A stretch of DNA of 64,000 nt from the sequence record PQ416618.1, one strand, 5' to 3'. The notes beneath the pieces were generated by a model. The model made no database searches. It was not told where the DNA came from and was given only the letters and a program-made list of their open reading frames with translations. Shown piece after piece: positions 4,585 to 37,749 of this stretch (position 1 is its first letter; each line of letters starts with the position of its first letter). Origin of the DNA: Escherichia phage vB_VIPECOMC06. Position numbers and translations under genes: made by a program.

Positions 4585-4585
4585 A

Positions 4586-12986: not shown

Positions 12987-15900
12987 CTAATTTAACCTGC
13001 GGTGGATTCACGGGGTCTCTTGGATTTCCTACATTATCGATTAACCGTTGTTCAACCAAATCTCTAAATCTAGAGAATGTTGTTCCGGACGCATCAAATA
13101 ATGGGCTCATCAGTTTACGTCGTTCCGATGGAAGTTGACCTTGAAATATGGAGTTATTGTTTTCAGCGTTATAATCTTCAGGCAATGGATAATCTTGGCC
13201 AGCCATAGGGCCTATTTCATATATCGCTTCACCTGTAATAGGGTCAAACTCAACATTTCCTTGTGGGTCTAATTTAGCCACTCGGTCTGCATATTTAGTC
13301 GGTAATCCAGAATCCCACTTATAGTTTTTGTATTTATTAATAATGGTTTCAACATGTTTAAGTGTTAATCCAGTGTTAATAAACATTGTGAGAAGGGTAA
13401 TTGCGATAAATCCAAATCCAACCGGATGAACAAAACGTAATACGTCTGATTTCCAACGAGATGATGGAAGTTTAGATTTAATCTTCATTACGTAGTATGC
13501 TCTACCACGATTTATGTAATCGATGTTGTTCTGAGAAAGCTCTTTACCTTTAATACCACGAACAATTTCACCTTCAAAACCAGGGAGTCTTTCAGCTTTA
13601 ACTTCCTGTCCTTGAATTAAACGACCTAAGAGGTTGTGAATTGTTACAGCCCATTGTAATTTACCTTTAGAGTAACTTCTCTCGATATACGTCACATTAC
13701 AACGTCCTGTAGCGGTGTATATGGTTTGTCCGACCAAATCTTCTGTCAACGAATCAGATTCAATGATGATATCATATTCGGTCCCGGAACTAGATTCAAT
13801 TTCAATTTCAACATCTTCATTATAAAGCACTTTAAACAAAAATTTATATGATGCTTCAGTTCCTTTAGTTGAATAGAAGTCATAACTTCTTGATTCAAAG
13901 AAACGAGACACTAAATCGCGTTTTTCGGCGTTTAAGTAAATGTTTCGTTTATAAATCTCAGACCATAAATATTCCCACGCATGCTCTTCGCGCGGATATT
14001 GATTTTTAATAAGATTTAAAAGGTTGTTATAATGGGTCCCATAGCCGTCAGAAAGATACTGAATATAAGCCTCGCAGAATGCTTCGAAGTTTGTATTATC
14101 TAAAAGATAAGACTCCGGCATCATTGTAGTGAGCAATGGACGTAAATCTGGGTCCGCAATACCATTCTCTTCAACAGGGGACCATGTGGTATCTTTTTCT
14201 TGGTTTTGTAACGATGCTGTTAAGAATACATTAGTAGGCTTCCAAATTATAGAAACATTATCTCTAACACGGTAACTAAAATCATAATAAGAAATAATCT
14301 CACCTGATGCTTTATAGAAAATCATGCCGGATGCATATTTTTTAAATCCGGTGAAATCTACGTTAGGCATCACTATTGTACAGTCACCGTCCTTCCAATA
14401 TTCATGAACTTCACGGTCTGGAGAACTAAGTGGATGACTCTCAATAACCTTAGTGTAAAGTAAATCAGAATAAATTACAACGGCCTTGTCTGAGTTATTA
14501 ATCCAACAACGAGTACCAGACTTTCTAGAATAACTAAAGAACGGCTCAGCATAGTATTCCATCGGTTGAGGAGTGAACGATTCCCATTGAGAGTCTTCGG
14601 TTGAAATAAATGACATCATATGATAATGTTTATCAGCCAACCATTCGCTAGGATACTCATATTTAACAGCACCGATTAAACCGTACTTGGCTTGTGTTTT
14701 TGGGTCATCAACAATATCTGATTCTAAAAATTTAAAATTACTAGATGAAATAGATAACTCAACACCATCAGTAGACATACTGGTGTACCCTGGTTCAATA
14801 CGACGGCGTTCTTCTTCAGTATTACCAAACACGCGTTTAAATGTGCCAGCATCATGGTCTAGAACGTAAACACCCTTATCAGCAGAATCAACAATAGGAG
14901 TGGTCCTCGGGTCGTCATTAAGATTAACAACTTCACCGATAATCAGTGCAAATATTTTACCACCAACAGAATCCATTTTATAGCAAACTGCCTTAGGGTT
15001 ACCTGTGATGTTAAATGTTTCTTGTTCAAACAAACGTTCGGAATATGTCGGAGATAATGGGTCTGAATCAATAGGGGCATTACTAGTTTTAATAAAACGA
15101 ACTTTATCTCGAGCAGCAACGTATACATAATCGTAATTGCAAACGATAGCTTCTGCAATACGTGATACGTTAGCAGGTAATGATGCATAGTTACCAAATA
15201 TTTCTACATCAAATCCTAAATTTAACTGGTCACCGATTTTAGCAAATGTTATATCTTGAGAACTAAATCTCACATCATCAGCGGACCAACGAACGTCTGT
15301 TGATTTACGGCCGTAAAATAATTTATCATACCCAAGAACATACGTGGTGTGATTTGTCTGGTAATACACTGTTCTTGATACAGGGTACCCTACACGGTCA
15401 TTAAACAATTTAACCGATTTCCAGGTTTGTCCCTTATCATTAGAGACTTTAACCACAGGCTGATACCGTTCAAACAAATAAAGAATTCCTTCGGATTCCA
15501 TCAAATAAACACGGTTTATATCATGACACACCTGTTGAATCGAACCTTGAATTTCATGATACTCATTTTCGCCAATAATGAAATTTTTAATAGATGAAAT
15601 ATCCGCATAAGCAGGGCTAAATTGGAACGATTCATTCATTAGAGCGGCCATTATAGTGTCATTATTAAAATCGACATAAGCCATGTTGTTATTTGTAAAT
15701 TTTTCTCTAATAAAAGTGTTAGCCAATTGCATTTCAATCATATGTTGAAATGTATAAGCGTTGGTCTGAAATGATTCAAATATTTCGGTATATACCCAAT
15801 CAGATCTCTCGAAGCCTTCGGCGGCAGTTGATACACGAATAATATAAGAAGTTAATGGGTCTAAGCTATTTTCGAACCAGTCGCTATTAGGAGTATATCC

Positions 15901-23993: not shown

Positions 23994-24679
<686 letters not shown>

Positions 24680-24691
24680 TTTCACAAAGTT

Positions 24692-24720
24692 ATTTACACG
24701 GGGTTTTAGTAGTGATACTA
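24692..24720 (+). promoter_or_regulatory. Early promoter/stem-loop cassette (aTTTAC -35, tagtgatactattaccctatc palindrome over -10)
   Basis: Sequence seen directly; same architecture recurs about 20 times in the window. Confidence 0.55.
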
Positions 24721-24757
24721 TTACCCTATCAAAACAAATGTGAAATTAGAGAATAAA

Positions 24758-25030
24758 ATGAAAACATTTAAAGAATTTATCAATGAAGCTGCTTTTAACG
24801 AAAAAGTAAAAATTAGCAAAGCTGTCAAGGCTTTGATTGATGACATCAATTACCTATATGATATTGATTTAACTGACTATGTAACAGTTGGTAACAAACG
24901 TAACTTTTTCGTGTTTGACATCTCTGAACTTGACCAGAATCAAATTAACAACATTGAGCGTTTTGCTAATGATAAGAGTCTTCGTCATGAGTCAGCGGGT
25001 TATAAAAAATACGCAATTTATTTAAAATGA
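24758..25030 (+). CDS. Internal-protein-like injected protein with capsid targeting sequence (IPI-position)
   Basis: Starts MKTFKEFINEA, the T4 internal-protein capsid-targeting-sequence signature (MKTYQEFIAE); located 3' of 57B where T4 has ipI. Confidence 0.7.
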   Translation: MKTFKEFINEAAFNEKVKISKAVKALIDDINYLYDIDLTDYVTVGNKRNFFVFDISELDQNQINNIERFANDKSLRHESAGYKKYAIYLK

Positions 25031-25060
25031 GTTTACTTTTAAATAGGGTTGTGGTACTAT
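25031..25060 (+). promoter_or_regulatory. Early promoter cassette (GTTTAC -35, 18-nt spacer, TACTAT -10)
   Basis: gtttacttttaaatagggttgtggtactat upstream of the 25091 ORF. Confidence 0.55.
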
Positions 25061-25090
25061 TATCTCATCAAAATTAATTAGGAAAATAAA

Positions 25091-25399
25091 ATGAAAACAT
25101 TTAAAGAATTTATCTGTGAAGCAGCTGCACCAAAGACATTCGTTATTCATACTCAAGCGGGTCTTGATGATGAGTATGCGGAAGCAATTCTGAAGTCACT
25201 TGCTAAGAACGGCGTTGAAGTAATTGCTTCGGACTTTAAGAAAGGGGCTCCCGAGATGTTTATTTCTATAACTAAAGGATCTAAAGCTAAGATTAAATCA
25301 TCATTCGGAGTTGCTCGTACCGATCAACTTGACAATCATAACTTTAAACAAACTGGCGTTAAACGGCAGAATACGATTGCATCACGCGGAATAAAATAG
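25091..25399 (+). CDS. Internal-protein-like injected protein with capsid targeting sequence
   Basis: Starts MKTFKEFICEAA; 102 aa; paralogous N-terminus to the 24758 ORF. Confidence 0.7.
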   Translation: MKTFKEFICEAAAPKTFVIHTQAGLDDEYAEAILKSLAKNGVEVIASDFKKGAPEMFISITKGSKAKIKSSFGVARTDQLDNHNFKQTGVKRQNTIASRGIK

Positions 25400-25410
25400 T
25401 TTATAAAACC

Positions 25411-25448
25411 GTTTACTTTTAGATAGGGTAGTGATACTATTACCCTAT
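25411..25448 (+). promoter_or_regulatory. Early promoter/stem-loop cassette
   Basis: gtttac -35, palindrome atagggtagtgatactattaccctat over -10, then caactactgaggagaataaaATG. Confidence 0.55.
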
Positions 25449-25468
25449 CAACTACTGAGGAGAATAAA

Positions 25469-25654
25469 ATGAAACGCGCTGAACTGATTCGTAATGTTGC
25501 TGTAGTAATTGCTTCAATGGCTTTTAGTTTTTCGATGTTTGTAGGATTCATTTGTGGACTACTGACAACAACAGAAAATTCTATCTCATTGGTAGTAGCA
25601 TTTCTAATCGGCTTAATCGCTATCGTTATGGATAAAATTGCAAAAGGTGAGTAA
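25469..25654 (+). CDS. Small hydrophobic (membrane) protein
   Basis: 61 aa, one long hydrophobic stretch; GAGGAG SD. Confidence 0.5.
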   Translation: MKRAELIRNVAVVIASMAFSFSMFVGFICGLLTTTENSISLVVAFLIGLIAIVMDKIAKGE

Positions 25655-25655
25655 A

Positions 25656-26018
25656 ATGAAATATCAAGTATATGCGGATTTTGAATCAAATCCTTCTAAA
25701 GACCCTGATTGTCGTTTGATACGCAGACCATTTGATTCAGCAGCTCAAGCCTGGGCTTGGATTAAAACTTGTACTCCTTCTTACACTTTCTTTGAAGTGG
25801 TAGATGATAACGGCATTTTGCATCCAGAACCTACAAAAACTATTAATTTCCTTCTGTTTGCTGGTTACGACTGTTATCCTCTTGGCGGTATTGACGATCT
25901 TGTTGCTACAGGAAAAACTGTTGAAGCTCTTCGTGAAATCTACAAAAATGCTGAAGAAAATTTTGACTGGTACCAGATTGTCAGTGCACATACTTTTGAA
26001 GTGGTGGAACACTCATGA
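25656..26018 (+). CDS. Hypothetical protein
   Basis: 120 aa from MKYQVYADF with AAAGGTGAG SD. Confidence 0.5.
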   Translation: MKYQVYADFESNPSKDPDCRLIRRPFDSAAQAWAWIKTCTPSYTFFEVVDDNGILHPEPTKTINFLLFAGYDCYPLGGIDDLVATGKTVEALREIYKNAEENFDWYQIVSAHTFEVVEHS

Positions 26019-26305
26019 TTCTTTATGCTAAAGTAAAATCTGTCGAGAACGGATATGAAAGCGATCAACGTGCAGCTAAAGCACTAGTCGATGACTATGG
26101 TATTTTGACTATTTTTGAAGTTGAAAAGGTTTACATCGACCGTTCATCTTCACAGGTTAAATTACTCTGTGAAGATGATAAATTTAACACAGTTAACTTT
26201 GATTTCTTTATTGAAACAGAAAAAGGCCCTCTTGAATATGATATTTTCAAGAATCCTTTGAAATTACGTTGCATTGAATATAATTACATTAATATGGTAC
26301 GGTGA
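26015..26305 (+). CDS. Hypothetical protein
   Basis: 96 aa; ATGA start/stop overlap with the upstream ORF. Confidence 0.5.
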   Translation: MILYAKVKSVENGYESDQRAAKALVDDYGILTIFEVEKVYIDRSSSQVKLLCEDDKFNTVNFDFFIETEKGPLEYDIFKNPLKLRCIEYNYINMVR

Positions 26306-26309
26306 GTAA

Positions 26310-26825
26310 ATGAATATTTGTTTAGGCAGTACAATTCCTAAAGGTTACGTAATTGATGTCACTACTTGGGAAAATGACGGTGACAACTATAAAACCAAAA
26401 CATTATTTGGTGTAGAAGAGCATGAGCTCCAACAGTTTAAATATCTCTTGAAGAAATTTAAGAGCCGTCATTCTAGCACCAAAGCCGAACGTTATTGCGG
26501 TAATACACCATTCAGTGATTGCTCGCTTTTAATCTATGAATACTTGGTTGAAGGACTGTTCTCAGACCAGCTTTATCCAGAATTCATTAAAAAGGTCTTT
26601 GATATTGAAGTCGACCTCGGTAATAAATCTGAAGAAGACGAATCACGTGTATTTGACCTGTTCCGTGAGAATGGATATTTGGTATCAGAAGGTCTCACTG
26701 ATATTCTTGGTCATGCTTCTGAATATTATGATTATGATTTCTTGCGTGTAGTTGAACGTGTCGAATTTGCTTATATTGAAGAAGAAATCGTTTTGCCAAC
26801 CGTTAAAATGATTGATTTGCTTTAA
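26310..26825 (+). CDS. Hypothetical protein
   Basis: 171 aa ORF with GGTGAG SD. Confidence 0.5.
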   Translation: MNICLGSTIPKGYVIDVTTWENDGDNYKTKTLFGVEEHELQQFKYLLKKFKSRHSSTKAERYCGNTPFSDCSLLIYEYLVEGLFSDQLYPEFIKKVFDIEVDLGNKSEEDESRVFDLFRENGYLVSEGLTDILGHASEYYDYDFLRVVERVEFAYIEEEIVLPTVKMIDLL

Positions 26826-26904
26826 GAATTATGTGTTATTATTAATTCATACCCTCTATTACCAAAGGTGCTCTAAAGTGCCTTTCATAATAGAAAGTTA
26901 TTAA

Positions 26905-26976
26905 GGCCCTGTAGCTCAATGGGAGAGCTGTCAGCTCATAACTGATAGGTAGCTGGATCGAAACCAGCCAGGGCCA
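26905..26976 (+). tRNA. tRNA with CAU anticodon (Met or lysidine-modified Ile)
   Basis: Cloverleaf readable by eye: acceptor GGCCCTG/CAGGGCC, D-arm GCTC-AATGGGA-GAGC, anticodon stem GTCAG/CTGAT with loop CTCATAA, T-arm GCTGG-ATCGAAA-CCAGC, discriminator A; no encoded CCA. Confidence 0.8.
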
Positions 26977-27017
26977 TATTTTGGGAACATAAATACTCTT
27001 AGAAATAGGAGATATTT

Positions 27018-27686
27018 ATGTTCCATTACACTTATAAAATAACAAATAAAATTAATAATAAAATCTATATAGGCGCTCATTCTACCGAAAATTTAGATGA
27101 TGGATATATGGGTTCTGGTAAATTATTAAAAAGAGCCCAAGACAAGTATGGTATAGAAAATTTTAATAAAGAAATTTTAGAATTCTTTGACACTAAAGAG
27201 CAGATGTTTGAAGCCGAGAAAAATATCGTAAACGAAGAATTTTTGAATCGTTCTGACGTATATAATTTAAAACTTGGTGGCGAAGGTGGTTGGGACCATT
27301 TAAATACTTACGAATTTAATTATAAAAAGAAAGAAGCCTCTATTAAAGGAGCCAAAGCTTTTAAAGAGAGATTTGATTCTGATGAAGTGCTTCAAGAAAA
27401 ATATCGTAAAATGGGTTCAGAGAAATTAAAGCATCTGTGGACTTTACCTGAATACAGAGAAAAATTCTCTAGCACTAAGTCGTTTTTAAATAAAAATCAT
27501 ACTTCCGAAACTATTGCTAAAATGAAAGATACCCACGCCAGGAACAAACACCAACAAGGCGAGAAAAATTCCCAGTTTGGTACTATGTGGATTCATTCAT
27601 TAGAAGAAAAGAAATCTAAGAAAATTAAGAAAACCGATCCTATTCCGGAAGGTTGGATTAAAGGCTATAAACTAAAATTTAAGTGA
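27018..27686 (+). mobile_element. GIY-YIG homing endonuclease (SegB-like) immediately 3' of the tRNA
   Basis: 222 aa; N-terminal YTYKITNKINNKIYIGAHS GIY-YIG motif; C-terminal NUMOD-like basic repeats; T4 segB (~221 aa) also lies in the tRNA cluster. Confidence 0.75.
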
Positions 27687-27693
27687 GGAAAAT

Positions 27694-28038
27694 ATGAAAG
27701 GCAATATTTATCTGGTAGTTCATGATTTAACGTTTTATTTTAACGAATATGATACAGTTATTTCTCATCGATTGATTAATTCGCTGTATCAGCACGCCGA
27801 TTACATTTATGTCCAAAATGAATTTGGACATTGGAAGTTCATTAAAAATCGTTCTGGGTTAACTAGTTTTGAATACTTTGACCGTAAAGACCTTTTAAAC
27901 GAAATCCCATTGCAACATCGGTTCCAGAAACGCGAATCATTATATTATTGCCGTCATATACCAAATGCCGAATGTGTTTATGAAGCGATTAATCTATGGC
28001 GTCGGCGTCGAGAGCAAATTAATGATATGCCAAAATAA
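27694..28038 (+). CDS. Hypothetical protein
   Basis: 114 aa ORF with GAGGAAAA SD. Confidence 0.45.
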   Translation: MKGNIYLVVHDLTFYFNEYDTVISHRLINSLYQHADYIYVQNEFGHWKFIKNRSGLTSFEYFDRKDLLNEIPLQHRFQKRESLYYCRHIPNAECVYEAINLWRRRREQINDMPK

Positions 28039-28040
28039 GA

Positions 28041-28337
28041 AACCGGGTCGCTACCGGTAAGTCGTCGGACTGATGTTCCCTGCGTAAGGACTGGTCTTAA
28101 TAAATCTTTATGATTTGTTAATATCCCCTTACATCACAGCAGAAACGGCGCACAGAATTATCGATTCGAGGAAATATCTTTGCCGTAAGCCGAGTAGCGT
28201 TTTTGACGGAACGTTCGGATATGGTCGAGATATGGCCTTTTAAAAATATTGAGTAGCGTCAACTGCTTAATAACCGGGTTCGAATCCCGGCGTTTCGTAC
28301 AAACACTTGCCTTGCAGGTGGAACCCCGACAAGGTAT
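28041..28337 (+). ncRNA. ORF-free candidate structured/stable RNA region containing a tRNA-like T-arm
   Basis: About 300 bp with no ORF of 60 aa or more; ccgggTTCGAATcccgg at 28274-28290 is a canonical tRNA T-stem-loop but I could not pair a full acceptor stem; T4 encodes stable RNAs C and D next to its tRNAs. Confidence 0.3.
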
Positions 28338-28366
28338 AGCCCCTTCCGAAAGGTTGGGGCTTTTTG
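28338..28366 (+). terminator. Rho-independent terminator
   Basis: agcccc-ttccgaaaggtt-ggggct hairpin followed by TTTTT; a near-identical copy is at 43427-43455. Confidence 0.7.
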
Positions 28367-28498
28367 GTATCTAGGCCTTTCAGGGCCTCTCTAGGCATCA
28401 TTTAGTTTATACCCTTTATAATATATTATCCTACCTTTTAATTTCCTCTCCCTGCCCTAGAATTCCATAAAACTTTTTTTAAAAATTTTCACAAAACT

Positions 28499-28528
28499 GT
28501 TTACATCCCTGTTCTTCTATGGTACTAT
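28499..28528 (+). promoter_or_regulatory. Early promoter cassette (GTTTAC ... TACTAT)
   Basis: ctgtttacatccctgttcttctatggtactat then caactactg...ggagaataaaATG. Confidence 0.5.
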
Positions 28529-28570
28529 ATCAATATCAACTACTGATACAGAAACAACTTGGAGAATAAA

Positions 28571-28834
28571 ATGGATAATTACGGTGAACTGTTCAACTTC
28601 TTTATGAAATGCGTTCCAGAAGATTTCGGACGTACAGTGAATGATATTAAAGTTATTGGACCTGAACACCCGGTGTATGAAACCTATGCAGTAATGGGTA
28701 ATGAAGATGGACAGTGGTATACAATTAAAGTTGTGATTAATATGTTCTCGGCTGAAGGCTACGCCAAATCGTCTACCAAAGTTTACCATGATAACGATTT
28801 TGATGCGGAAGATTATTTCAATAATATGAAATAA
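28571..28834 (+). CDS. Hypothetical protein
   Basis: 87 aa from MDNYGEL with GGAG SD. Confidence 0.45.
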   Translation: MDNYGELFNFFMKCVPEDFGRTVNDIKVIGPEHPVYETYAVMGNEDGQWYTIKVVINMFSAEGYAKSSTKVYHDNDFDAEDYFNNMK

Positions 28835-28864
28835 TTGTTTACATGGGCTCATGATTAAGATATT

Positions 28865-29197
28865 ATGAGCCCTATTAATGAGAAGAATGTTATGAGTCTT
28901 TATACTGAACTGAATAAAAAATCTGAAGAATCTGCTGAAACTATTTTTAAAAACGTGCAAAAGCGTATTTTAGAAAAGATGTATAACACTGCAGCTAAAG
29001 GTGAAAAATCTTGCCGGTTTCCGATGAGGTGTTCTTCTGATTTATGCGCAAATACTATTGAATGGCTGGAAAGCGAAGGTCTTACGGTAGAGAAAAATCC
29101 AACGACTTCTATTGACAGTGAATCATATATTAGTATTTCTTGGGATAAACCACGTATTAATGAAGGACACTACAAGTTGTTAAGTTGGAAAAATTAA
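28865..29197 (+). CDS. Hypothetical protein
   Basis: 110 aa ORF. Confidence 0.4.
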   Translation: MSPINEKNVMSLYTELNKKSEESAETIFKNVQKRILEKMYNTAAKGEKSCRFPMRCSSDLCANTIEWLESEGLTVEKNPTTSIDSESYISISWDKPRINEGHYKLLSWKN

Positions 29198-29266
29198 AAA
29201 TAAATGATGTACAAACGCCAAGGACGGTGTTACTATAGACTTATCAACTACAGAGGAGTAAACAAA

Positions 29267-29431
29267 ATGACTACTTTAATTATTTGGTTCGATGAAAATG
29301 AAGAAACATACTGTGTGAATATTGGTGAAAGTCCAATGCCTGAATTTGAATCCTCAGATAAAAACTCTGTTGTATCTTGGGCTGAAGGTTATAAAGCAGC
29401 TAAAGGTGACGTTGAAATAATTTACATCTAA
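29267..29431 (+). CDS. Hypothetical small protein
   Basis: 54 aa from MTTLIIWF with GAGGAG SD; ORF-track extension upstream lacks an SD. Confidence 0.35.
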   Translation: MTTLIIWFDENEETYCVNIGESPMPEFESSDKNSVVSWAEGYKAAKGDVEIIYI

Positions 29432-29478
29432 GTAAGTTTATGTTATAGTAATCACATCAAATCAAGAGGAGAAACAAA

Positions 29479-29706
29479 ATGGCTACAGTTAGTATTGATG
29501 TCGTTGATTATGAATACACCGAAGAAGTTATTCGCAACCGTCACCCTGAAGTTCGTATCGATTCGGTCCAAGATTCCAAGTTCTGGACAACTGAGCTTAA
29601 TCTGAGTGGTCCTTATGAAGCTGTTAAGAAGTTCATGGTTGAAGAATACTGTGAAGGCATGCACCCAGAAGACGCCGAGTTTTATGTCAATTTGATTAAA
29701 AAATAA
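29479..29706 (+). CDS. Hypothetical acidic protein
   Basis: 75 aa; AGAGGAG SD. Confidence 0.45.
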   Translation: MATVSIDVVDYEYTEEVIRNRHPEVRIDSVQDSKFWTTELNLSGPYEAVKKFMVEEYCEGMHPEDAEFYVNLIKK

Positions 29707-29741
29707 TTTACAAACTCTTGAGAGCAGAGTATAATGCTCTC
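29706..29741 (+). promoter_or_regulatory. Early promoter/stem-loop cassette; near-identical copy at 59314-59348
   Basis: tttacaaactcttgagagcagagTATAATgctctc; palindrome gagagca/tgctctc flanks the -10. Confidence 0.55.
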
Positions 29742-29776
29742 ATTGGATATTAAACCACCAATTGAAAGGTAATAAT

Positions 29777-30370
29777 ATGAACACACTGAAGAAACTTGTT
29801 GAATTCATCCGCACTAAACTGGGTACTGCTATGGCTAAAAATCTGACTGTCGAAGAACAGTATAACGCAGCTGCAGATAAGTTGATTACCCAAATCAAAG
29901 AACTAAAAACGGCTTCTGTTAAATCTATTAATGAAGAAAAACGTATTCGTGAACTTGTTATTGAAAAGAATAAGCAAGCCGCTTCTAAGGAACGTGAAAT
30001 TCGTAAGCTCTTGGCTGAAGGACAAGATGTTACCATGCATGCTAAGCTTGGTCTTCTGTATCGTCGAACTGCCGAACAACTTAATACAAAAGCCGACGGG
30101 TACGCTGCTATGCGAATTGAAATTGCTCGTAAGGTGGTTGAACTTGATGATGCTCGTCAGAACCTGGCAATCAAACTCGAATACATTCGTGAAACTCGAG
30201 CAGCCAATGCCCTTGGTATCTCTACGGCTGATGATGTAATTGAAATCGCTGCACTGACTAAGGTTGATATCGAAGACACTCTGACTCGTGTTGAAACGTT
30301 CAATGGCACTCCAACTGGTGTCGAAACAACTTCTGCTGATGTACAAGAATATATTAACTCTTTGAAATAA
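29777..30370 (+). CDS. Coiled-coil protein, possibly PspA/IM30-like
   Basis: 197 aa, long heptad-like helical sequence (…[28 protein letters not shown]…[20 protein letters not shown]); resemblance to PspA architecture is by eye only. Confidence 0.4.
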
Positions 30371-30378
30371 AATAATAC

Positions 30379-30400
30379 GGAGGACTCCGGTCCTCCTTTT
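30379..30400 (+). terminator. Rho-independent terminator
   Basis: ggaggac-tccg-gtcctcc hairpin followed by TTTT. Confidence 0.65.
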
Positions 30401-30419
30401 GGATAATAAAGGAGTTAAC

Positions 30420-31016
30420 ATGCGAAACCAAAATAATGATATTGACTCAATGTTCGAAGAGTTCCGAAATAAGGTAAATCCACCTACGTCTTTAGTTGAT
30501 TCATTACGATATGTTGCAACTGGACGTAAATGGTACTGGTCGTCTTCTTATGAGACAACTGAATATGCAAATAACCGAAAATCTTTATTAGCCCCAGGTA
30601 TTATGATTCATGATATCGGAGCTATTGCTAAACTAGTTGCAGACCATGATATTAGATTCACTGATTTCGTTGCTCCTACGTGGTCTGTTTGTTGTTTAAA
30701 CACTGAATGGGACTATATCAGTGAACGCTCTGAAGATTATTATGGTTTTAGAGATAAGCTCTTAAGGTCTAACATGTTTTATATCGATACTGAAGTTCTA
30801 GTCGATAATAAAAAATATTACTTTACGTTAATCGTCGATTCTGAAACTATGTATGAAGGCAAGCCTTTGCTTAAAAGAGTTGATGCTTTAAGTGCTATTG
30901 ATGCGCTTTATGAAACCATGGTTGTTAGTCCTAATTTCACTAACAATTTAATCCTTGAGCAATTTATTATGGAATGTAGAGAATATGTCAAAGCCAACCC
31001 TGTACATGCCAAGTAA
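30420..31016 (+). CDS. Hypothetical protein ending in the FIMECR junction motif
   Basis: 198 aa from MRNQNNDID with AAAGGAG SD; C-terminus ...EQFIMECREYVKANPVHAK. Confidence 0.45.
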   Translation: MRNQNNDIDSMFEEFRNKVNPPTSLVDSLRYVATGRKWYWSSSYETTEYANNRKSLLAPGIMIHDIGAIAKLVADHDIRFTDFVAPTWSVCCLNTEWDYISERSEDYYGFRDKLLRSNMFYIDTEVLVDNKKYYFTLIVDSETMYEGKPLLKRVDALSAIDALYETMVVSPNFTNNLILEQFIMECREYVKANPVHAK

Positions 31017-31380
31017 GCCCTGGGCGTATGAATACAAACGTAAATTAATCCCAAATGAAGTACTATTTGGCCCTATTTTAGCTTTAGCATTTTTAATCTT
31101 TATGATTATAGGAGCTATTTTAGATTCCAATAAAGTTATATCATCTGATGCAGTGTTTTTACTTATTATAGCCGGGTCGTTTATTGTACCATTTTTATTA
31201 ATGCCTATTAACTGGGTGGGATATTGGTACCAAGGACGTCATCACAGAGCCCGATTAAGAGAATGGAAAGTTCAGTGCGCAAAAGCCCAAGCTCAGTATG
31301 ATGAAGCTGTTAAAAAGTATGAATATGAAGAAGCTATGGAATTCGTTAAGGAAATAAGATGCAAAAGCCTCAACTCTTAA
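30985..31380 (+). CDS. Small membrane protein (FVKEIRC-tail family)
   Basis: 131 aa from MSKPTLYMP; two hydrophobic segments; C-terminus ...MEFVKEIRCKSLNS. Confidence 0.5.
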   Translation: MSKPTLYMPSKPWAYEYKRKLIPNEVLFGPILALAFLIFMIIGAILDSNKVISSDAVFLLIIAGSFIVPFLLMPINWVGYWYQGRHHRARLREWKVQCAKAQAQYDEAVKKYEYEEAMEFVKEIRCKSLNS

Positions 31381-31718
31381 CCGTATGGCCTTCTCTTGGC
31401 GAGAACATTCTAATTTTTATTATGAGTATTGGCATGGGATTTGCCTTTGGATTAGTTGGATTTCTTATTGACGGCGTTGTGTTAGGATTTATAGGGAACA
31501 CTGGTGGATTCACAGACCAATGGCAGGACTTACGGTATACCCAAGCCTTTGCATCCATCGCATCCTTTTGTACTGTAGTCTATTTTTACTACGATTTTAT
31601 AAACCATAACAAGAAAAATAAAAAGGTTTACGCTTCTCAAATGATTAGTTATAATGAACTCCTAGCTAGACGTGAAAATGAAACAATAGAAAACTTTATT
31701 AAGGAATGTAGAAAATGA
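31359..31718 (+). CDS. Small membrane protein (FIKECR-tail family)
   Basis: 119 aa; hydrophobic segments; C-terminus ...ENFIKECRK; AAGGAA SD. Confidence 0.5.
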   Translation: MQKPQLLTVWPSLGENILIFIMSIGMGFAFGLVGFLIDGVVLGFIGNTGGFTDQWQDLRYTQAFASIASFCTVVYFYYDFINHNKKNKKVYASQMISYNELLARRENETIENFIKECRK

Positions 31719-32020
31719 GTAAGATTATTGAAATTAAAGTACCAGAGTTTAATGATGCCAAATCCGCTTCAGATGCAATTTATAAACTTCTGAATCAAGC
31801 TGAACGTATCGAAGAAGAAGCAACAAAGATCGCAGACCAATATGCTGTATCATTTTCTGTAGGTGATTACGGTAGCGGTCGTACTTATTATCCTAAGGGT
31901 GAAATTGTATCCCAGTGGATGAAAGATGAAATTGAAAATAATGGTGGTGATGTTAAACGTGAAGGTAATGGTTACGTTATTACTGAAGGTGCTTGGGTTT
32001 CGTCTTCTGCGATGTGCTAA
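31715..32020 (+). CDS. Hypothetical protein, member of a tandem paralog triplet (C-terminal W-V-S-S-S..C)
   Basis: 101 aa; C-terminus EGAWVSSSAMC; the next two ORFs share this tail. Confidence 0.5.
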   Translation: MSKIIEIKVPEFNDAKSASDAIYKLLNQAERIEEEATKIADQYAVSFSVGDYGSGRTYYPKGEIVSQWMKDEIENNGGDVKREGNGYVITEGAWVSSSAMC

Positions 32021-32029
32021 GGAATCATT

Positions 32030-32302
32030 ATGTCTAAAGAACAAACCGAACTGGCCGAAGCCGTAGAAAAAATCTATGCAGCTATTGAGGCTGCCAAAGA
32101 AATTGCTGATAAACAAAACACAACATTCGACTTGTATCCAGCTTATGGTATGGGTGGAACCTATCATTCACCTGGACAACTTAAAGCCGATCTTGAACGT
32201 TGTACAAAAAACGGCTATGCTGAATGGGCTGACGTTTACCAATACGACTACAACCTGAGCCTCGAAACCGGTGGTTGGATTGCATCTTCTCACACTTGCT
32301 AA
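32030..32302 (+). CDS. Hypothetical protein, paralog triplet member
   Basis: 90 aa; C-terminus GGWIASSHTC. Confidence 0.5.
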   Translation: MSKEQTELAEAVEKIYAAIEAAKEIADKQNTTFDLYPAYGMGGTYHSPGQLKADLERCTKNGYAEWADVYQYDYNLSLETGGWIASSHTC

Positions 32303-32311
32303 GGAAATCAT

Positions 32312-32509
32312 ATGTCTCGTGAATTAGATTGTGCTGTACGTACGGCAGTAGCTGCTCTGGAAAACCTGTTCCAAATTGCAACAGAAGAACGCGAAGAAGT
32401 TACATTATGGATTGAAGATAACGCAGGTCTGAATCTCCAGAATGCAATCTCGGTATCAAATAATAGTATTACTGTTCAAGGCTGGGTATCATCTAGTTAT
32501 TCTTGCTAA
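32312..32509 (+). CDS. Hypothetical protein, paralog triplet member
   Basis: 65 aa; C-terminus QGWVSSSYSC. Confidence 0.5.
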   Translation: MSRELDCAVRTAVAALENLFQIATEEREEVTLWIEDNAGLNLQNAISVSNNSITVQGWVSSSYSC

Positions 32510-32513
32510 AACA

Positions 32514-32543
32514 GTTTACAACAAGATAGGGCTATGTTATAGT
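32514..32543 (+). promoter_or_regulatory. Early promoter/stem-loop cassette
   Basis: gtttacaacaagatagggctatgttatagtagtcctatc (palindrome atagg.../...cctat over -10). Confidence 0.5.
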
Positions 32544-32571
32544 AGTCCTATCAAATTAAATGGAGTCCACA

Positions 32572-32811
32572 ATGATTTATTACGAAAGTATCGGAACCAA
32601 AGTGGTTGGTAAAACCATTACTCGTGAAAAGTTTGCAAAGATATTCGATATGCGTTATAAAAAATCTGAACACAAAGGCATCAGATTCGAAGATGCACAC
32701 TGTACAATTTGCCCTTATAATGAAGACATAAATGGTACAATCGTTCCATTGGTAGAGGCTTCACATGACGACCTCTGGGATGAATATAATATCGCATGTC
32801 GCGAAATTTAA
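32572..32811 (+). CDS. Hypothetical Cys/His-containing small protein
   Basis: 79 aa from MIYYES with GGAG SD. Confidence 0.4.
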   Translation: MIYYESIGTKVVGKTITREKFAKIFDMRYKKSEHKGIRFEDAHCTICPYNEDINGTIVPLVEASHDDLWDEYNIACREI

Positions 32812-32839
32812 GTTAATGAATTAATCCGAGGAAATTATT

Positions 32840-33796
32840 ATGATGTTAGTTATTGGTTCTCGTGCACTTCACTATCATGGACTTATTGATTCTAACGCTA
32901 TCAAAAATAGTGACTGGGACTTTATTGCGGACCAAGGTTCTTGGAATACATTCAAAAATCAAATGATGGGTGTATATGTTCACCAAGATAACCCTGATGT
33001 CCAAGTTTTCAAATGCTTCCATAACGGACGCGAAACTCATTTTGAAGCATATATTGTTCCGGCAATCACTAATGTCCGTGAATTAGTCGGTGAACTCACT
33101 CCTGAAGATTTCACGTCTTCTTACGACCTTTTAAAATACGCCAAGAAAAATTTAACTAAAGACCGTTTGAACGGGTTTTACTGGGCAACTCCTGGGATGT
33201 GTCTTGCAATTAAGATGTCTCATCGTTTCAAGAAAAATAATCCATTCTTTTTAAAGACTATGAACCATATTCAGTATCTTCGTGGTAAAGGTGTTACACT
33301 GAACGATGAACTTACTGAAATTATGCTGAAACGCCAGAAAGAAACCTTGAACTATGCTCACCCAGTTCTTGACACTTCTAAAAGTGCGTTCTTTAAAGAT
33401 GACATCTATACATATGACCATGATACTATTCATGAAGCCATTGCACTAACAGACCGTCCAGCATATACATTTTATATGAAAGACGGTTCTGAAGTCATGA
33501 CCTCACGCGAGAAGTTTGAATCATTACCAGAAATGGTCAAATTGGCCGGTGTATACGAAGAATCATGTGTACTAGCATTAGAACGTTCTCAGATTCCTAA
33601 TGACTTTAAAATTAACCCTGAATCCAGTTTCATGATGGCATTGGAAAAAGTCTGTACAAGCATCACCTCCGGTTGGTTCCGTGAGTATGCCTGGGAAAAC
33701 TACAGCAAAGTAGTAAGTATGTACCAAAGCTTAGGACATGATGATTACGTCAAACGTTTCAAACAAAATTTCCATATGGTAAAACCTTTCAAATAA
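32840..33796 (+). CDS. Hypothetical 318-aa protein, possibly nucleotidyltransferase-fold
   Basis: N-terminus LVIGSRALHYHGLIDSNAIKNSDWDFI loosely fits a pol-beta NTase G-S...D-x-D signature, but the spacing is atypical; GAGGA SD. Confidence 0.35.
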   Translation: MMLVIGSRALHYHGLIDSNAIKNSDWDFIADQGSWNTFKNQMMGVYVHQDNPDVQVFKCFHNGRETHFEAYIVPAITNVRELVGELTPEDFTSSYDLLKYAKKNLTKDRLNGFYWATPGMCLAIKMSHRFKKNNPFFLKTMNHIQYLRGKGVTLNDELTEIMLKRQKETLNYAHPVLDTSKSAFFKDDIYTYDHDTIHEAIALTDRPAYTFYMKDGSEVMTSREKFESLPEMVKLAGVYEESCVLALERSQIPNDFKINPESSFMMALEKVCTSITSGWFREYAWENYSKVVSMYQSLGHDDYVKRFKQNFHMVKPFK

Positions 33797-33808
33797 CTTC
33801 ACAAAACT

Positions 33809-33838
33809 GTTTACAACATGATAGGACTATGTTATAGT
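33809..33838 (+). promoter_or_regulatory. Early promoter/stem-loop cassette
   Basis: gtttacaacatgataggactatgttatagtagtcctat. Confidence 0.5.
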
Positions 33839-33866
33839 AGTCCTATTAAAACATGAGGAGAATATT

Positions 33867-34172
33867 ATGAAATTAGGCGAAACCAACCGAATTGGTCTTT
33901 TAACAATATTTGCATCACCTTTTTACGCAGCCCTTTCTGTTGCAGTATTACAAAAGGCTTACGATATGGATGGTGTTCCTGGTTTTGTATTCTTATCGCC
34001 GTTTTTGCTATTCGTTGGAGCATTGTTATTATATGCCACGACTAGTTTCGACCATAACGTCTGGGTCAATTATAAATGTAAATTGTCTGAAGAAGAACAC
34101 GCGGAAGCTCGTAAAAAAGCTATTGAATCTACTAATCTAGAAAATTTCATTAAAGAATGTCGAGGAAAATAA
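33867..34172 (+). CDS. Small membrane protein (FIKECR-tail family)
   Basis: 101 aa; two hydrophobic segments; C-terminus ...LENFIKECRGK. Confidence 0.5.
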   Translation: MKLGETNRIGLLTIFASPFYAALSVAVLQKAYDMDGVPGFVFLSPFLLFVGALLLYATTSFDHNVWVNYKCKLSEEEHAEARKKAIESTNLENFIKECRGK

Positions 34173-34243
34173 TATGAATAGTTGATGGCAATGAAGGTAT
34201 TTCATACTATTCAGTAGATTGGACATCCTGTCCATCCTACTTA

Positions 34244-34642
34244 GTGAAACATATTTGCCAAGAATTTAAAATCGACCAGCCAGCAGGTATTATCGTGAAC
34301 AGATACATTAATGGATATCAACCTATCGATGAAGTAATACGAACAACCCAAGCTGAGCTTGAAAAGTTTTTCAATAAGTGCCAATGGATAACAGGATGGA
34401 TTATATTTGTACCATCGGTATGGTTTTTTAGTACTAAAGTAAGTGCCTTTGCCGTACTAGATATTATCGCCATCTTATTAGCATCTATTATCATAAGTGT
34501 TGTTGGTGGCATCATTGGCGGCGGTACCGCCGCCATCATTATTAATCTTATTAAAAGTAGTTTACAAGAACGTAAAGACAAGATAAAAGCCAAGAATAAT
34601 GAAGTTGAACGTTTTATTACCGAATGCAGGAATTTGAGATGA
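34244..34642 (+). CDS. Small membrane protein (FITECR-tail family), non-ATG (GTG) start
   Basis: 132 aa; no in-frame ATG in the N-terminal two-thirds and no clear SD; hydrophobic core with GG-rich segment; C-terminus ...ERFITECRNLR. Confidence 0.35.
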   Translation: MKHICQEFKIDQPAGIIVNRYINGYQPIDEVIRTTQAELEKFFNKCQWITGWIIFVPSVWFFSTKVSAFAVLDIIAILLASIIISVVGGIIGGGTAAIIINLIKSSLQERKDKIKAKNNEVERFITECRNLR

Positions 34643-35097
34643 TGAGTAAGAAAAATAAAGTGAAAGAACTATCAGCCGGTATTATTTTCCTTACCGAAGA
34701 TAAAGAATTATTCATGGGGCGTGTAACTGGTTCTCGTCCTAAAGGTTCTTTAGCTCATCGGTGGGATATTCCTAAAGGTCGTGTCGAGCCCGGCGAATCT
34801 CCTATTGAAGCCGCTATTCGTGAATGTGAAGAAGAAACTGGGTTTACACAATATGACCCTGCCTTCCTGAAAGACCTAGGTGAACATCGTTACTCAGACA
34901 ATAAGAATATTCATCTGTTCCTATATACCATCCCTGTAGAGCACGAGCAATTCAGAAACAGTGTTTGTAATTCCTATCATACGTTCCCAGACGGACGACA
35001 GATTCCTGAATTTGATGCATTCGCTTTAATTAAACCTTCTCAATGGGAATATGTAATGGGCAAATCATTATATAAGGTGCTCACTACCCTCCTATAA
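34639..35097 (+). CDS. nudE: Nudix hydrolase NudE (T4 e.1)
   Basis: Nudix box GRVEPGESPIEAAIRECEEETG; about 152 aa; adjacent to lysozyme gene e. Confidence 0.88.
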   Translation: MMSKKNKVKELSAGIIFLTEDKELFMGRVTGSRPKGSLAHRWDIPKGRVEPGESPIEAAIRECEEETGFTQYDPAFLKDLGEHRYSDNKNIHLFLYTIPVEHEQFRNSVCNSYHTFPDGRQIPEFDAFALIKPSQWEYVMGKSLYKVLTTLL

Positions 35098-35103
35098 GTA
35101 ATA

Positions 35104-35131
35104 AATACCTCCTATAAACGTGGGAGGTATT
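35104..35131 (+). promoter_or_regulatory. Gene e translational-control hairpin with embedded late promoter
   Basis: tacctcc-TATAAAcg-tgggaggta: stem ACCTCC/GGAGGT sequesters the SD (GGAGG); TATAAA late-promoter-like element sits in the loop, as described for T4 gene e. Confidence 0.6.
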
Positions 35132-35620
35132 ATGAATATATTTGAAATGCTTCGTAATGACGAAGGTCTTAGACTGACTTTATACAAAGACACTGAAGGC
35201 TTTTGGACGATTGGCATAGGTCATTTAGTAACAAAGAACCCGTCTTTAGCTGTAGCTAAAGCCGAACTTGACAGAATGATCGGGCGTAAATGCAACGGTA
35301 CAATTACCCTTGATGAGGCTGAAAAGTTATTTAATGAAGACGTTGATAAAGCTGTTCGCGGAATCTTGGGTAATGCTAAACTTAAACCGGTGTATGATTC
35401 TTTAGATGCAGTTCGTCGATGTGCATTGGTCAATATGGTCTTCCAAATGGGTGTAGCAGGCGTCGCCGGTTTTACTAATTCTCTTCGTATGCTTCAACAG
35501 AAACGTTGGGACGAAGCGGCAGTAAATCTAGCCCAATCTAAATGGTATCGTCAGACACCTAATCGCGCGAAACGCGTAATCTCAACATTTAAAACAGGAA
35601 CTTGGAAAGCGTATATATGA
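35132..35620 (+). CDS. e: Endolysin (T4 lysozyme)
   Basis: 162 aa; [32 protein letters not shown]...[13 protein letters not shown]...[15 protein letters not shown] matches T4 lysozyme, including the catalytic Glu11/Asp20/Thr26 region. Confidence 0.95.
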
Positions 35621-35898
35621 AAACATATAGTGAATTTTTATCAGAATCTATTCTTAACGAAGCTACTGACACATTTGCAACTAAGCTAGGTGCAGCTTTG
35701 GTTGAAGCTGAAAGTTTATTAGCACGTATTTCTGAACTTGCTAGTAAGATAGATACTCGCAAATTTGAGCGCACCAGTGATATCGTTAAGCTTGAAGCCT
35801 TGTTGCGTATGTGCGATAAACCAGAAGAAATCGCTAAGAACGGCTCGCTGATGAAACAACGTCTTGAAAAATATATTTCAGGCGCTTCAGAAAAATAG
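35617..35898 (+). CDS. Internal-protein-like protein with capsid targeting sequence
   Basis: Starts [10 protein letters not shown] (CTS-like); ATGA overlap with the gene e stop; 93 aa. Confidence 0.6.
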
Positions 35899-35930
35899 TG
35901 TTTACTTCCTCCAAGGACTTTGATACTATA
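35899..35930 (+). promoter_or_regulatory. Early promoter cassette
   Basis: gtttacttcctccaaggactttgatactat then caactacttggaggaaattATG. Confidence 0.5.
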
Positions 35931-35956
35931 CATTCATCAACTACTTGGAGGAAATT

Positions 35957-36370
35957 ATGACTCGTATCAATTTAACACTTGTTTCTGAACTGACCGACCA
36001 ACATCTTATGGCGGAGTATCGTGAATTACCACGCGTATTTGGTGCAGTCCGTAAACATGTTCAAAACGGTAAACGTGTAAAGGATTTTAAAATCTCTCCA
36101 ACATTTATCTTAGGCACAGGACACGTAACATTCTTTTACGACAAACTCGAATTTTTACGTTTACGTCAAATCGAGCTAATCGCTGAATGCTTGAAACGTG
36201 GTTTCAAAATCAAGGACACGACTGTCCAGGATATTTCCGACATCCCTGCAGAATTTCGTAATAATTATGTCCCGTCCGAAGCGTCCATTGCGATAAGTCA
36301 AGCACGCTTAGACGAAAAAATTGCCCAACGTCCTACTTGGTACAAATACTATGGTAAATCAATTTACTAA
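35957..36370 (+). CDS. denV: Endonuclease V (pyrimidine dimer DNA glycosylase)
   Basis: 137 aa; [34 protein letters not shown]...[22 protein letters not shown] matches T4 DenV almost exactly. Confidence 0.95.
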
Positions 36371-36401
36371 GGAAAAAGGTTGCGATGGTAAAGCTTAAAT
36401 T

Positions 36402-36431
36402 GTTTACGCTTAAGTATTAATATGGTATAAT
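36402..36431 (+). promoter_or_regulatory. Early promoter (GTTTAC -35, TATAAT -10)
   Basis: gtttacgcttaagtattaatatggTATAAT upstream of the 36462 ORF. Confidence 0.5.
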
Positions 36432-36461
36432 TACTCTATCAAAACAAACAAGGAAACAAAA

Positions 36462-36776
36462 ATGAAAACGTATAAAGAATTTATTGCAGAATCCGCCAAC
36501 CAACGCGTTGAAGGTGGTTATATTTGGATTGAACAAGTTGAGCCACCGAGCCGCACTTCTACAGGTAAATGGAAAATTACTGTTGATGGTCCTGGTGGTA
36601 AACGTAGGACTCTTAAAGAAATTAATGGGTACTATGAAGAAGCTCTTTCGGATGCAGGAACTTACATGATGCAAATCATGATTAAAAACCCTGAAAACCG
36701 TTTTGCAGCTAAAGTCTTCCGTCGCATCGGTAATAAACTTTATGACGCATACTCTAAAAACTTCCCTAAAGAATAA
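36462..36776 (+). CDS. Internal protein (IPII-like) with capsid targeting sequence
   Basis: Starts MKTYKEFIAESA; 104 aa; near denV/e as are T4 ipII/ipIII. Confidence 0.75.
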   Translation: MKTYKEFIAESANQRVEGGYIWIEQVEPPSRTSTGKWKITVDGPGGKRRTLKEINGYYEEALSDAGTYMMQIMIKNPENRFAAKVFRRIGNKLYDAYSKNFPKE

Positions 36777-36802
36777 CATGAATTAAAACAATAGGAACAA
36801 AA

Positions 36803-37381
36803 ATGAAAACATATAAAGAATTTATCGCCGAGGCCTTTGCAGGAAAAGCTCAAGGCATTAATAAGGACGAGTGGACTTATCGTGGTGGAAACGGCTTTGA
36901 CCCTAAAACTGCTCCACTTGAACGATATCTAGCCACAAAGGCTTCCGACTTTAAAGCTTTCGCTTGGGAAGGACTTCGCTGGCGTAACGATCTAAATATT
37001 GAAGTTGACGGACTTAAATTTGCTCATATTGAAGATGTTGTTGCTAGTAACTTAGACGCAGCTTTTGTTAAAGCCGACAGTGATCTTCGACGCTGGAATT
37101 TAAAACTGTTCTCTAAACAAAAAGGACCGAAGTTTGTGCCTAAAGCTGGTAAATGGGTCATTGATAATAAATTAGCTAAGGCTGTCAACTACGCTGGTCT
37201 TGAATTCGCCAAGCACAAATCATCATGGAAAGGTCTTGATGCAATGGCTTTCCGTAAAGAATTTGCTGATGTTATGGCTAAAGGCGGCTTTAAGGCAGAA
37301 ATAGATACCTCTAAAGGTACGTTTAAAGACGCTAATGTTCAGTACGCTTACGCCGTTGCTAATGCAGCCCGTGGTAATTAA
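36803..37381 (+). CDS. Internal protein (IPIII-like) with capsid targeting sequence
   Basis: Starts MKTYKEFIAEAF; 192 aa (T4 IPIII ~193 aa). Confidence 0.75.
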   Translation: MKTYKEFIAEAFAGKAQGINKDEWTYRGGNGFDPKTAPLERYLATKASDFKAFAWEGLRWRNDLNIEVDGLKFAHIEDVVASNLDAAFVKADSDLRRWNLKLFSKQKGPKFVPKAGKWVIDNKLAKAVNYAGLEFAKHKSSWKGLDAMAFRKEFADVMAKGGFKAEIDTSKGTFKDANVQYAYAVANAARGN

Positions 37382-37419
37382 GGCCTATACTTAGGCCTAT
37401 TTACATTTAAAGGACACAT

Positions 37420-37749
37420 ATGAAAACATATCAAGAGTTTATCACTGAAGTTACATTATCTGCGGAACAGAAAGCTGCTATCGAAGAAGGTAAAAATCCC
37501 AAAGTAACATATAAAGTAAATAGTAAAGGCGTTTTTGATGGCTTGGTTCAAGACCCTGAATTGAAAAAAGCTCTTTCTAAAACTAATGCGTACTTTGCTC
37601 CTAAATTTAACACAGCCGGTGTACTTATTGGATTGGATGTATTCAACTCTAAAGGTGTTCTATCTAGTGCCTTTGGTTATGCCGCTAACAAAATTACCAA
37701 AGCCGCATGGGAATCCAATACCAAACAAGCTCAAAAGCCTAGAGTATAA
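37420..37749 (+). CDS. Internal protein with capsid targeting sequence
   Basis: Starts MKTYQEFITEV; 109 aa. Confidence 0.75.
   Translation: MKTYQEFITEVTLSAEQKAAIEEGKNPKVTYKVNSKGVFDGLVQDPELKKALSKTNAYFAPKFNTAGVLIGLDVFNSKGVLSSAFGYAANKITKAAWESNTKQAQKPRV

Follow-up and report, generated by a model that had tools for sequence, protein, structure and literature searches.

What are six small genes good for whose products begin alike over some ten residues and then part company? The question is raised by Escherichia phage vB_VIPECOMC06 (sequence record PQ416618.1), of which a stretch of 64,000 nucleotides (nt), here called the window, was analysed; position 1 is its first letter. Six open reading frames (ORFs) on its + strand open with MKT[F/Y]xEF[I/L]xE. 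This is the capsid targeting sequence (CTS) of the internal proteins (Ip) of phage T4, and it includes, at residues 8-10, the L/I-x-E site of the prohead protease gp21. An earlier note on this DNA had drawn attention to the six genes and had regarded each of them as a candidate injected anti-restriction or anti-defence effector. All six belong to public families and are, in our judgement, very probably members of the T-even Ip class. They are listed here with the size of their products in amino acids (aa) and, for most of them, the isoelectric point (pI) of the mature protein.

24758..25030, + strand: W1, Ip9-type, 90 aa, CTS MKTFKEFINE; predicted mature protein of 80 aa, pI 6.8
25091..25399, + strand: W2, Ip7-type, 102 aa, CTS MKTFKEFICE; mature pI 9.8
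35617..35898, + strand: W3, internal head protein of the RB69ORF127c type, 93 aa; a second site, L-N-E, ends at residue 15
36462..36776, + strand: W4, Ip10-type, 104 aa, CTS MKTYKEFIAE; mature pI 9.6
36803..37381, + strand: W5, IPIII (Ip3) ortholog, 192 aa, CTS MKTYKEFIAE; mature pI 9.6
37420..37749, + strand: W6, CTS protein of the RB69ORF123c type, 109 aa, CTS MKTYQEFITE; mature pI 9.7

The shared N-terminal tag

The six tags start on the + strand at 24758, 25091, 35617, 36462, 36803 and 37420, exactly where they had been placed before. Position 24740, from which the region had been let to begin, is an in-frame upstream GTG; the CTS of W1 starts with the ATG at 24758. A search of the window in six frames for MKT[FY].EF gave exactly six matches, each at the N-terminus of an ORF, as against none in 200 shuffles of the window. 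Looser CTS patterns yielded no extra candidates in the window. All six ORFs are preceded by purine-rich leaders, and their families are conserved in 90 to 496 phage genomes. With the shuffles, the position of every match and this conservation speaking against it, the idea that the motif recurs by chance or that ORFs were mis-called has a practically negligible probability.

Across the six proteins M1, K2, T3, E6, F7 and E10 are invariant, with F or Y at position 4 and I or L at position 8; the mean pairwise identity of residues 1-10 is 76%. All six tags resemble MKTYQEFIAE and align without gaps with T4 IPII and IPIII, and with IPI over its first 7 residues. As summarised in PMC9026906, the mutagenesis of Mullaney and Black showed positions 4 and 7 of the T4 IPIII tag to be critical for targeting and positions 8 and 10 for processing. 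In T4 the first ten residues suffice for the packaging of foreign proteins (PMC9026906). Suitable residues for targeting (4, 7) and for processing by gp21 (8, 10) are found in all six proteins of the window. T4 IPI comprises 95 aa and its mature form 76 aa (PMC3012670), which implies a cut after I-T-E at residue 19 and fits the same rule. The alignment with T4, which the earlier note had proposed as a check, came out in its favour: CTS and L/I-x-E motif are conserved, and T4 indeed has three such genes. The codons of the tag differ synonymously between the genes (ACA/ACG, GAA/GAG, ATC/ATT), which argues for a constraint at the protein level. These differences indicate that the tag is under selection as a peptide and has not merely been copied recently.

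Behind the tag the likeness ends. The bodies had been described as unrelated to each other, and BLASTP cross-matches are in fact confined to the first 10-20 residues. The sole longer match is that between W4 and W6. Without the CTS its E value is 0.098, so that a relationship of these two bodies, as suggested by their shared match to phrog_3966, is not significant. Compared with T4 IPI-III, the products of the window share the CTS, the L/I-x-E site, the loci and the small size, and W5 is 92% identical to IPIII over its full length (192 residues). The difference lies in the other five (W1, W2, W3, W4 and W6), whose similarity to the T4 proteins is limited to the tag; BLASTP comparison with the latter finds neither an IPI nor an IPII ortholog in the window.

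Families, loci and exchange of cassettes

Over the 14.5 kb around the six genes, the identity is 97% with Shigella phage phi25-307 and about 95% with RB69, two phages of the genus Mosigvirus in the Tevenvirinae; judged by this identity, the window is that of an RB69-like Mosigvirus, i.e., of a T-even phage. It spans 64 kb from tail and baseplate genes to gene 47. The gene order is that of T4 and RB69: gene 1, 57A and 57B are followed by W1 and W2, then by tRNA.4 to tRNA.2 and tRNA-Met; e.8 to e.2, nudE and e precede W3, and denV precedes W4, W5 and W6, behind which vs.8 and later genes are found. W1 and W2 thus occupy the canonical ipI locus between 57B (24224-24679) and tRNA.4. W3 to W6 occupy the ipII-ipIII locus near e and denV, W3 standing behind e and the other three behind denV. 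The ATG of W3 even overlaps the stop codon of the lysozyme gene e (ATGA). By synteny with T4, RB69 and phi25-307, all six genes lie where ip genes are expected. The three clusters described before are readily seen as three groups; they represent, however, just two canonical ip loci, the second of which is divided by denV. The 57B ortholog directly upstream of W1 is the anti-CBASS nuclease Acb1 (Pfam PF23474, 1.3e-58), so the ipI locus adjoins another anti-defence gene.

Homologs of the six proteins were counted among 50,697 phage records. For W1, the identity to "Ip9" of phage RB15 amounts to 90%, and the PHROG match (8e-54) is to phrog_7673, "internal head protein"; homologs of W1 occur in 169 records, and its gene is absent from phi25-307 and RB69. 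The AlphaFold2 (AF2) model of W1 (predicted local distance difference test, pLDDT, 78) shows a small alpha/beta domain to which the CTS helix is joined by a disordered linker. Fold searches with this model returned generic alpha/beta domains only; in BFVD it matched one unnamed viral protein of 535 aa (32% identity, E = 1.4e-5). W2 is 94% identical to the "Ip7 protein" of WG01, 99% to gp262 of phi25-307 and 65% to RB69ORF156c. It matches phrog_2667, "internal head protein", at 4e-40 and has homologs in 283 records. A match of W2 to AbiJ_NTD3 stayed below the threshold (E = 0.0067, 16 bits versus a cutoff of 32.5) and was treated as noise. W3, which is identical (100%) to gp088 of phi25-307 and 92% identical to RB69ORF127c, matches phrog_3499, "internal head protein", at 1e-46. 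Its RefSeq family bears the same name, and 496 records contain a homolog. W4 clusters at 90% with RB69ORF124c and with the "Ip10" of phage Pol (CAA84455), is 99% identical to gp085 of phi25-307 and has homologs in 189 records. The match of W5 (2e-117) is to phrog_5341, "internal virion protein". Of the five PHROG families matched, four are accordingly labelled internal head or virion protein. Searches of Pfam, NCBIfam and PDB with the six sequences yielded nothing of use, and a literature search on Ip7, Ip9 and Ip10 retrieved unrelated papers only. The RB15 and Pol entries reportedly go back to Repoila et al. 1994. As orthologs of the Ip proteins of other T-even phages in a Mosigvirus background, W2, W1 and W4 do not differ from them in kind.

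W6 alone among the six is nowhere labelled as an internal protein in the records and cluster entries listed. Its identity to RB69ORF123c is 97%, and it is matched by 90 phage records; among the 30 listed, the annotated ones read "hypothetical protein", as do the named cluster members. The exception, among the matches listed, is a relative of about 37% identity labelled "RNA polymerase ADP-ribosylase". A HMMER scan of 1.84 billion representative proteins found, besides the cluster of W6 itself, one relative with 40% identity, P0093, and low-complexity matches in giant proteins that were disregarded. P0093 is encoded by the ORF behind denV in Dhakavirus WG01 and starts with MKTYQQFITE. The tag has thus been kept at 9 of 10 residues in this family while the body diverged to 40% identity, and its retention in so distant a relative is good evidence for its being functional. 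The AF2 model of W6 was unusable (pLDDT 46).

How such genes come and go can be read from the signals that precede them and from the comparison with the two related phages. The following elements matter here.

24693..24721, + strand: promoter-like site of the early sigma-70 type in front of W1 (TTTACA and TACTAT with a 17 nt spacer, TG before the latter; promoter scan)
25032..25060, + strand: second copy of the ipI-type promoter/leader, upstream of W2 (TTTACT, 17 nt, TACTAT, with TGG before the -10; read from the sequence)
36403..36431, + strand: early-type promoter-like site upstream of W4 (TTTACG, 17 nt, TATAAT, with TG before it; 10/12, promoter scan)
37381..37398, + strand: terminator-like hairpin between W5 and W6 (AGGCCTATACTTAGGCCT, then a T-rich tail; terminator scan)
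37420..37449, + strand: CTS-coding repeat of W6 with the junction at which IPII is missing relative to phi25-307 (all three sequences agree over the first 19 nt of the ORF)

The sites in front of W1, W2 and W4 have in common a GTTTAC-like -35, the 17 nt spacer, an extended -10 and a similar leader. The region in front of W1 can be aligned with that in front of T4 ipI. The W2 site scores 8/12 and stays below the scan threshold of 9/12; it aligns with the upstream regions of both W1 and T4 ipI. The leader of W6 aligns with those of T4 ipII and ipIII. The site upstream of W4 probably serves W4 and W5, and perhaps also W6. The hairpin between W5 and W6 is conserved in phi25-307, where it lies between IPIII and IPII.

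Against a background of 97% identity in the flanks, the ip cassettes differ from those of phi25-307 in three respects: Ip9 is extra, and gp086 and IPII are missing. The extra Ip9 cassette (24680-24760) shows a crossover inside the repeated promoter region. Between denV and Ip10, phi25-307 has yet another CTS gene, gp086, which in the window is replaced from its start codon to 12 nt before its stop by 9 nt (36378-36386); this junction is bounded by the CTS start and the promoter of the next cassette. As to IPII, the window corresponds upstream of the W6 ATG to the IPIII-IPII spacer of phi25-307, and from about nt 20 of the ORF onwards to gp082; the junction falls within the first ~19 nt that encode the CTS. 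The Ip9 and IPII junctions thus lie inside the repeated promoter/leader/CTS module. In the alignment of the Ip9 family, one and the same body follows either MKTFKEFINE, the ipI type, or a MKTYQEFI[S/A/T]E tag, which points to recombination breakpoints within or just after the tag. The notion of cargo swapping behind a conserved tag is therefore supported by all three differences and by junctions lying in the module or at its edges. The idea itself is said to originate from Repoila et al. 1994.

The layout of RB69 and phi25-307 is the same, and W3, W4 and W6 share 92-100% identity with their counterparts in RB69 (ORF127c, 124c and 123c) and in phi25-307 (gp088, 085 and 082). RB69 differs in having IPI, ORF149c and ORF125c and in lacking IPIII; phi25-307 has gp086 and IPII and lacks Ip9. 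RB69 contains seven CTS-type ORFs (ORF156c, ipI, ORF149c, ORF127c, ORF125c, ORF124c and ORF123c), and phi25-307 likewise seven. Six CTS genes are not exceptional for the genus.

Three of the RB69 genes deserve a word of their own. RB69ORF149c (4377-4817 of the RB69 comparison sequence) is a CTS ORF of 146 aa, MKTYAEFLTEAA, between the tRNA region and e.8; it marks a separate ip cassette location and has no counterpart in the window. In RB69ORF127c (13164-13200 of that sequence) a 1-nt deletion is followed, 22 nt on, by a 1-nt insertion. This frameshift pair scrambles residues 5-12 of the tag, giving MKTYMNFYQN; either the CTS has really decayed or the 2003 sequence contains an error. RB69ORF123c (14589-14918) starts with MKTYQEFIAAV, Ala replacing the cleavage-site Glu at position 10, and its product is predicted to be targeted to the head and not to be cleaved at this site.

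Packaging, timing and likely function

In T4, packaging and injection of internal proteins are established (PMC3012670; PMC9026906). Ip1 blocks the GmrSD enzyme of CT596, Ip2 the GmrSD/BrxU enzyme of ECOR21 and Ip3 the GmrS1/GmrSD2 enzyme of ECOR17, without cross-protection (PMC12373910). Ip1-3 are mutually unrelated (PMC12373910), so the absence of homology does not exclude an inhibition of GmrSD. The fold of IPI* is made up of two beta sheets with N- and C-terminal helices on either side. T4 requires IPIII to infect ECOR17, and IPIII deprived of its CTS is active from the host cytoplasm (PMC9391042). It has also been published that T-even phages carry many CTS-tagged Ips; for the diversity of this set, passages in PMC3012670 and PMC12373910 cite Repoila et al. 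1994.

The DNA to be protected is of a different kind. Mosigvirus DNA contains arabinosylated 5-hydroxycytosine, unlike that of T4 with its glucosylated hydroxymethylcytosine (glucosyl-hmC) (PMC13326640). For the present phage, whose modification genes lie outside the window, we infer arabinosylation from the genus. GmrSD-family enzymes do cut arabinosylated DNA: RB69 is attacked by the enzymes of CT596 and UTI89, and the Mosigvirus NP by BrxU (PMC6024577; PMC13390438). The same class of targets is therefore relevant here. The IPI of RB69 has been reported to prevent GmrSD-type restriction of RB69 (PMC6024577; PMC13390438).

A likely course of events, in our view, is the following. During prohead assembly, each protein would be attached by its CTS of some ten residues to the gp22/gp21 scaffolding core; gp21 would cut after Glu10 (I/L-x-E), and the mature proteins of about 9-20 kDa would stay in the head together with the DNA. 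Delivered with the genome into the next host, they would act before any phage gene is expressed. Their likeliest job would be a stoichiometric inhibition of host enzymes that attack sugar-modified DNA, above all type IV enzymes of the GmrSD family, each of the unrelated bodies being matched to a different enzyme subtype. Homologous recombination between the promoter/leader/CTS modules, repeated at the head of each cassette, would turn the repertoire over. W5 is predicted to inhibit the GmrS1/GmrSD2 enzyme of the ECOR17 type; by analogy, the other five most likely act against particular subtypes of type IV enzymes or against other defences that set in early. That these six proteins are packaged, cleaved and injected and counter a host defence is thus deduced from the class to which they belong. 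The proposal of injected anti-restriction effectors, with which the earlier note had closed, finds backing in the GmrSD experiments on all three T4 proteins and in the 92% identity of W5 to one of them.

Of course, a packaged protein need not be an inhibitor. With a pI of 9.6-9.8 and a net charge of +5 to +9, four of the six proteins are strongly basic in their mature form, and some or most of the set might instead have a physical role in the head, be it neutralisation of DNA charge, organisation or anchoring of the DNA, or aid in its ejection. A 2026 preprint places Ip3 on the inner face of the major capsid protein, where it touches residual DNA in emptied T4 heads, and suggests that it leaves the head after the genome (10.64898/2026.03.06.709160). 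W1 and W3, however, are not basic (pI 6.8 and 6.3). Moreover, all three T4 Ips have specific GmrSD targets, and Ip3 without CTS works from the cytoplasm (PMC9391042; PMC12373910); presence or absence of such genes in near-identical phages also fits accessory genes of an arms race better. We therefore hold a purely physical explanation to be unlikely; physical and anti-defence roles may nevertheless coexist.

As to timing, the promoters directly upstream of W1, W2 and W4 are of the early type. The canonical T4 late promoter, TATAAATA, is found neither within 120 nt of any of the six genes nor elsewhere on the + strand between 23632 and 42861, i.e., in 19 kb including e and the ip genes. This region contains variants with one mismatch only, e.g., AATAAATA at 35100, upstream of e. 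One might then suspect that some tags are relics that were copied along with the promoter/leader module, and that the proteins remain unpackaged and act early in the cytoplasm. The changes in RB69, i.e., the frameshift pair in ORF127c and the Ala at position 10 of ORF123c, would fit such a decay. In the window, however, all six tags are intact at every critical position, the tag of the W6 family is conserved across genera despite its diverged body, and in T4 ten residues are enough to package a foreign protein (PMC9026906). Relic tags are hence still less probable than a purely physical role.

The interpretation as packaged and injected anti-restriction proteins has its weak sides, too, and the lack of a canonical late promoter in these 19 kb is one of them: with early-type promoters only in sight, a supply of the proteins at the time of head assembly is an assumption. 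The genes for gp21 and the scaffold lie outside the window; RB69, 95% identical over this region, encodes gp21, gp22, gp67 and gp68. No virion proteomics for a Mosigvirus was found in the papers searched. Finally, for five of the six proteins the anti-restriction role is an extrapolation from the class, since their bodies are unlike Ip1-3 and have no match in Pfam, NCBIfam or PDB. All this weighs against the proposal. Taken as a whole, from Ip class through packaging, gp21 cleavage, injection and anti-restriction to recombination in the module, it nevertheless appears likely to us.

Head-packaged proteins that are delivered with the DNA are not restricted to T-even phages. The Dar system of phage P1 (DarA, DarB, Hdf and others) likewise blocks restriction in this manner (PMC12810830). 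By the literature, the P1 proteins are unrelated and mostly large, are packaged in a defined order, are directed at type I restriction-modification systems and lack a T4-type CTS. T4 Alt and the ejection proteins of giant phages (SPN3US) have other propeptides, are much larger enzymes and are encoded outside the ip loci.

Neighbouring features and biological meaning

Some observations concern the DNA between the two ip loci. The ORF at 27018-27686 (region 26983-27674) is a seg-like homing endonuclease gene of the GIY-YIG type (Pfam GIY-YIG, 1.3e-6). It occupies the exact place of tRNA-Arg(UCU) in phi25-307 and RB69; homology to phi25-307 ends at 26982 and starts again at 27675. ARAGORN and an Rfam scan of the window detected tRNA-Met (26905-26976) only and no tRNA-Arg. 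Because of this break in homology and the single tRNA found, the tRNA-Arg gene appears to have been replaced by the endonuclease gene. Next to it, 27675-28368 shows 92% conservation with RB69. Where T4 has its small stable RNAs rnaC and rnaD, some 520 nt of the window (28039-28558) are without an ORF of at least 60 aa; Rfam at gathering threshold gave no match in it. In the variable e.2-e.3 region, the ORF at 32840-33796 (318 aa) is the ortholog of RB69ORF134c and combines DUF7277 with DUF7275 (3e-27 and 6e-79).

The finding, then, is real but ordinary: concept, tag, loci and families are already in the literature and the databases. What remains of value is, in the first place, a gain in annotation, W6 having no internal-protein label in the public annotation examined. 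In addition, the five cargoes other than W5, coming from a genus with arabinosylated DNA, could reveal new pairs of inhibitor and enzyme. The junctions left by recombination in the tag-coding repeats, finally, stand out with unusual clarity and show how the repertoire is reshuffled.

Internal proteins precede phage gene expression and thereby determine how far the host range of T-even phages extends in the face of modification-dependent restriction. The six genes are concrete and cheaply testable candidates in this respect, one of them, the Ip3 ortholog W5, with a predicted target. It is also conceivable, and we offer this as a tentative idea that may well prove wrong, that at least one of the Ip7, Ip9, Ip10, ORF127c-type and ORF123c-type cargoes is an injected inhibitor of something other than a GmrSD enzyme acting on glucosyl-hmC, e.g., of a type IV enzyme specific for arabinosyl-5-hydroxycytosine or of a defence other than restriction. 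If this were true, the array of CTS cassettes, adjoining Acb1/57B and recombining in its tag repeats, would be a general platform for the delivery of anti-defence proteins in the "first minute" of infection.

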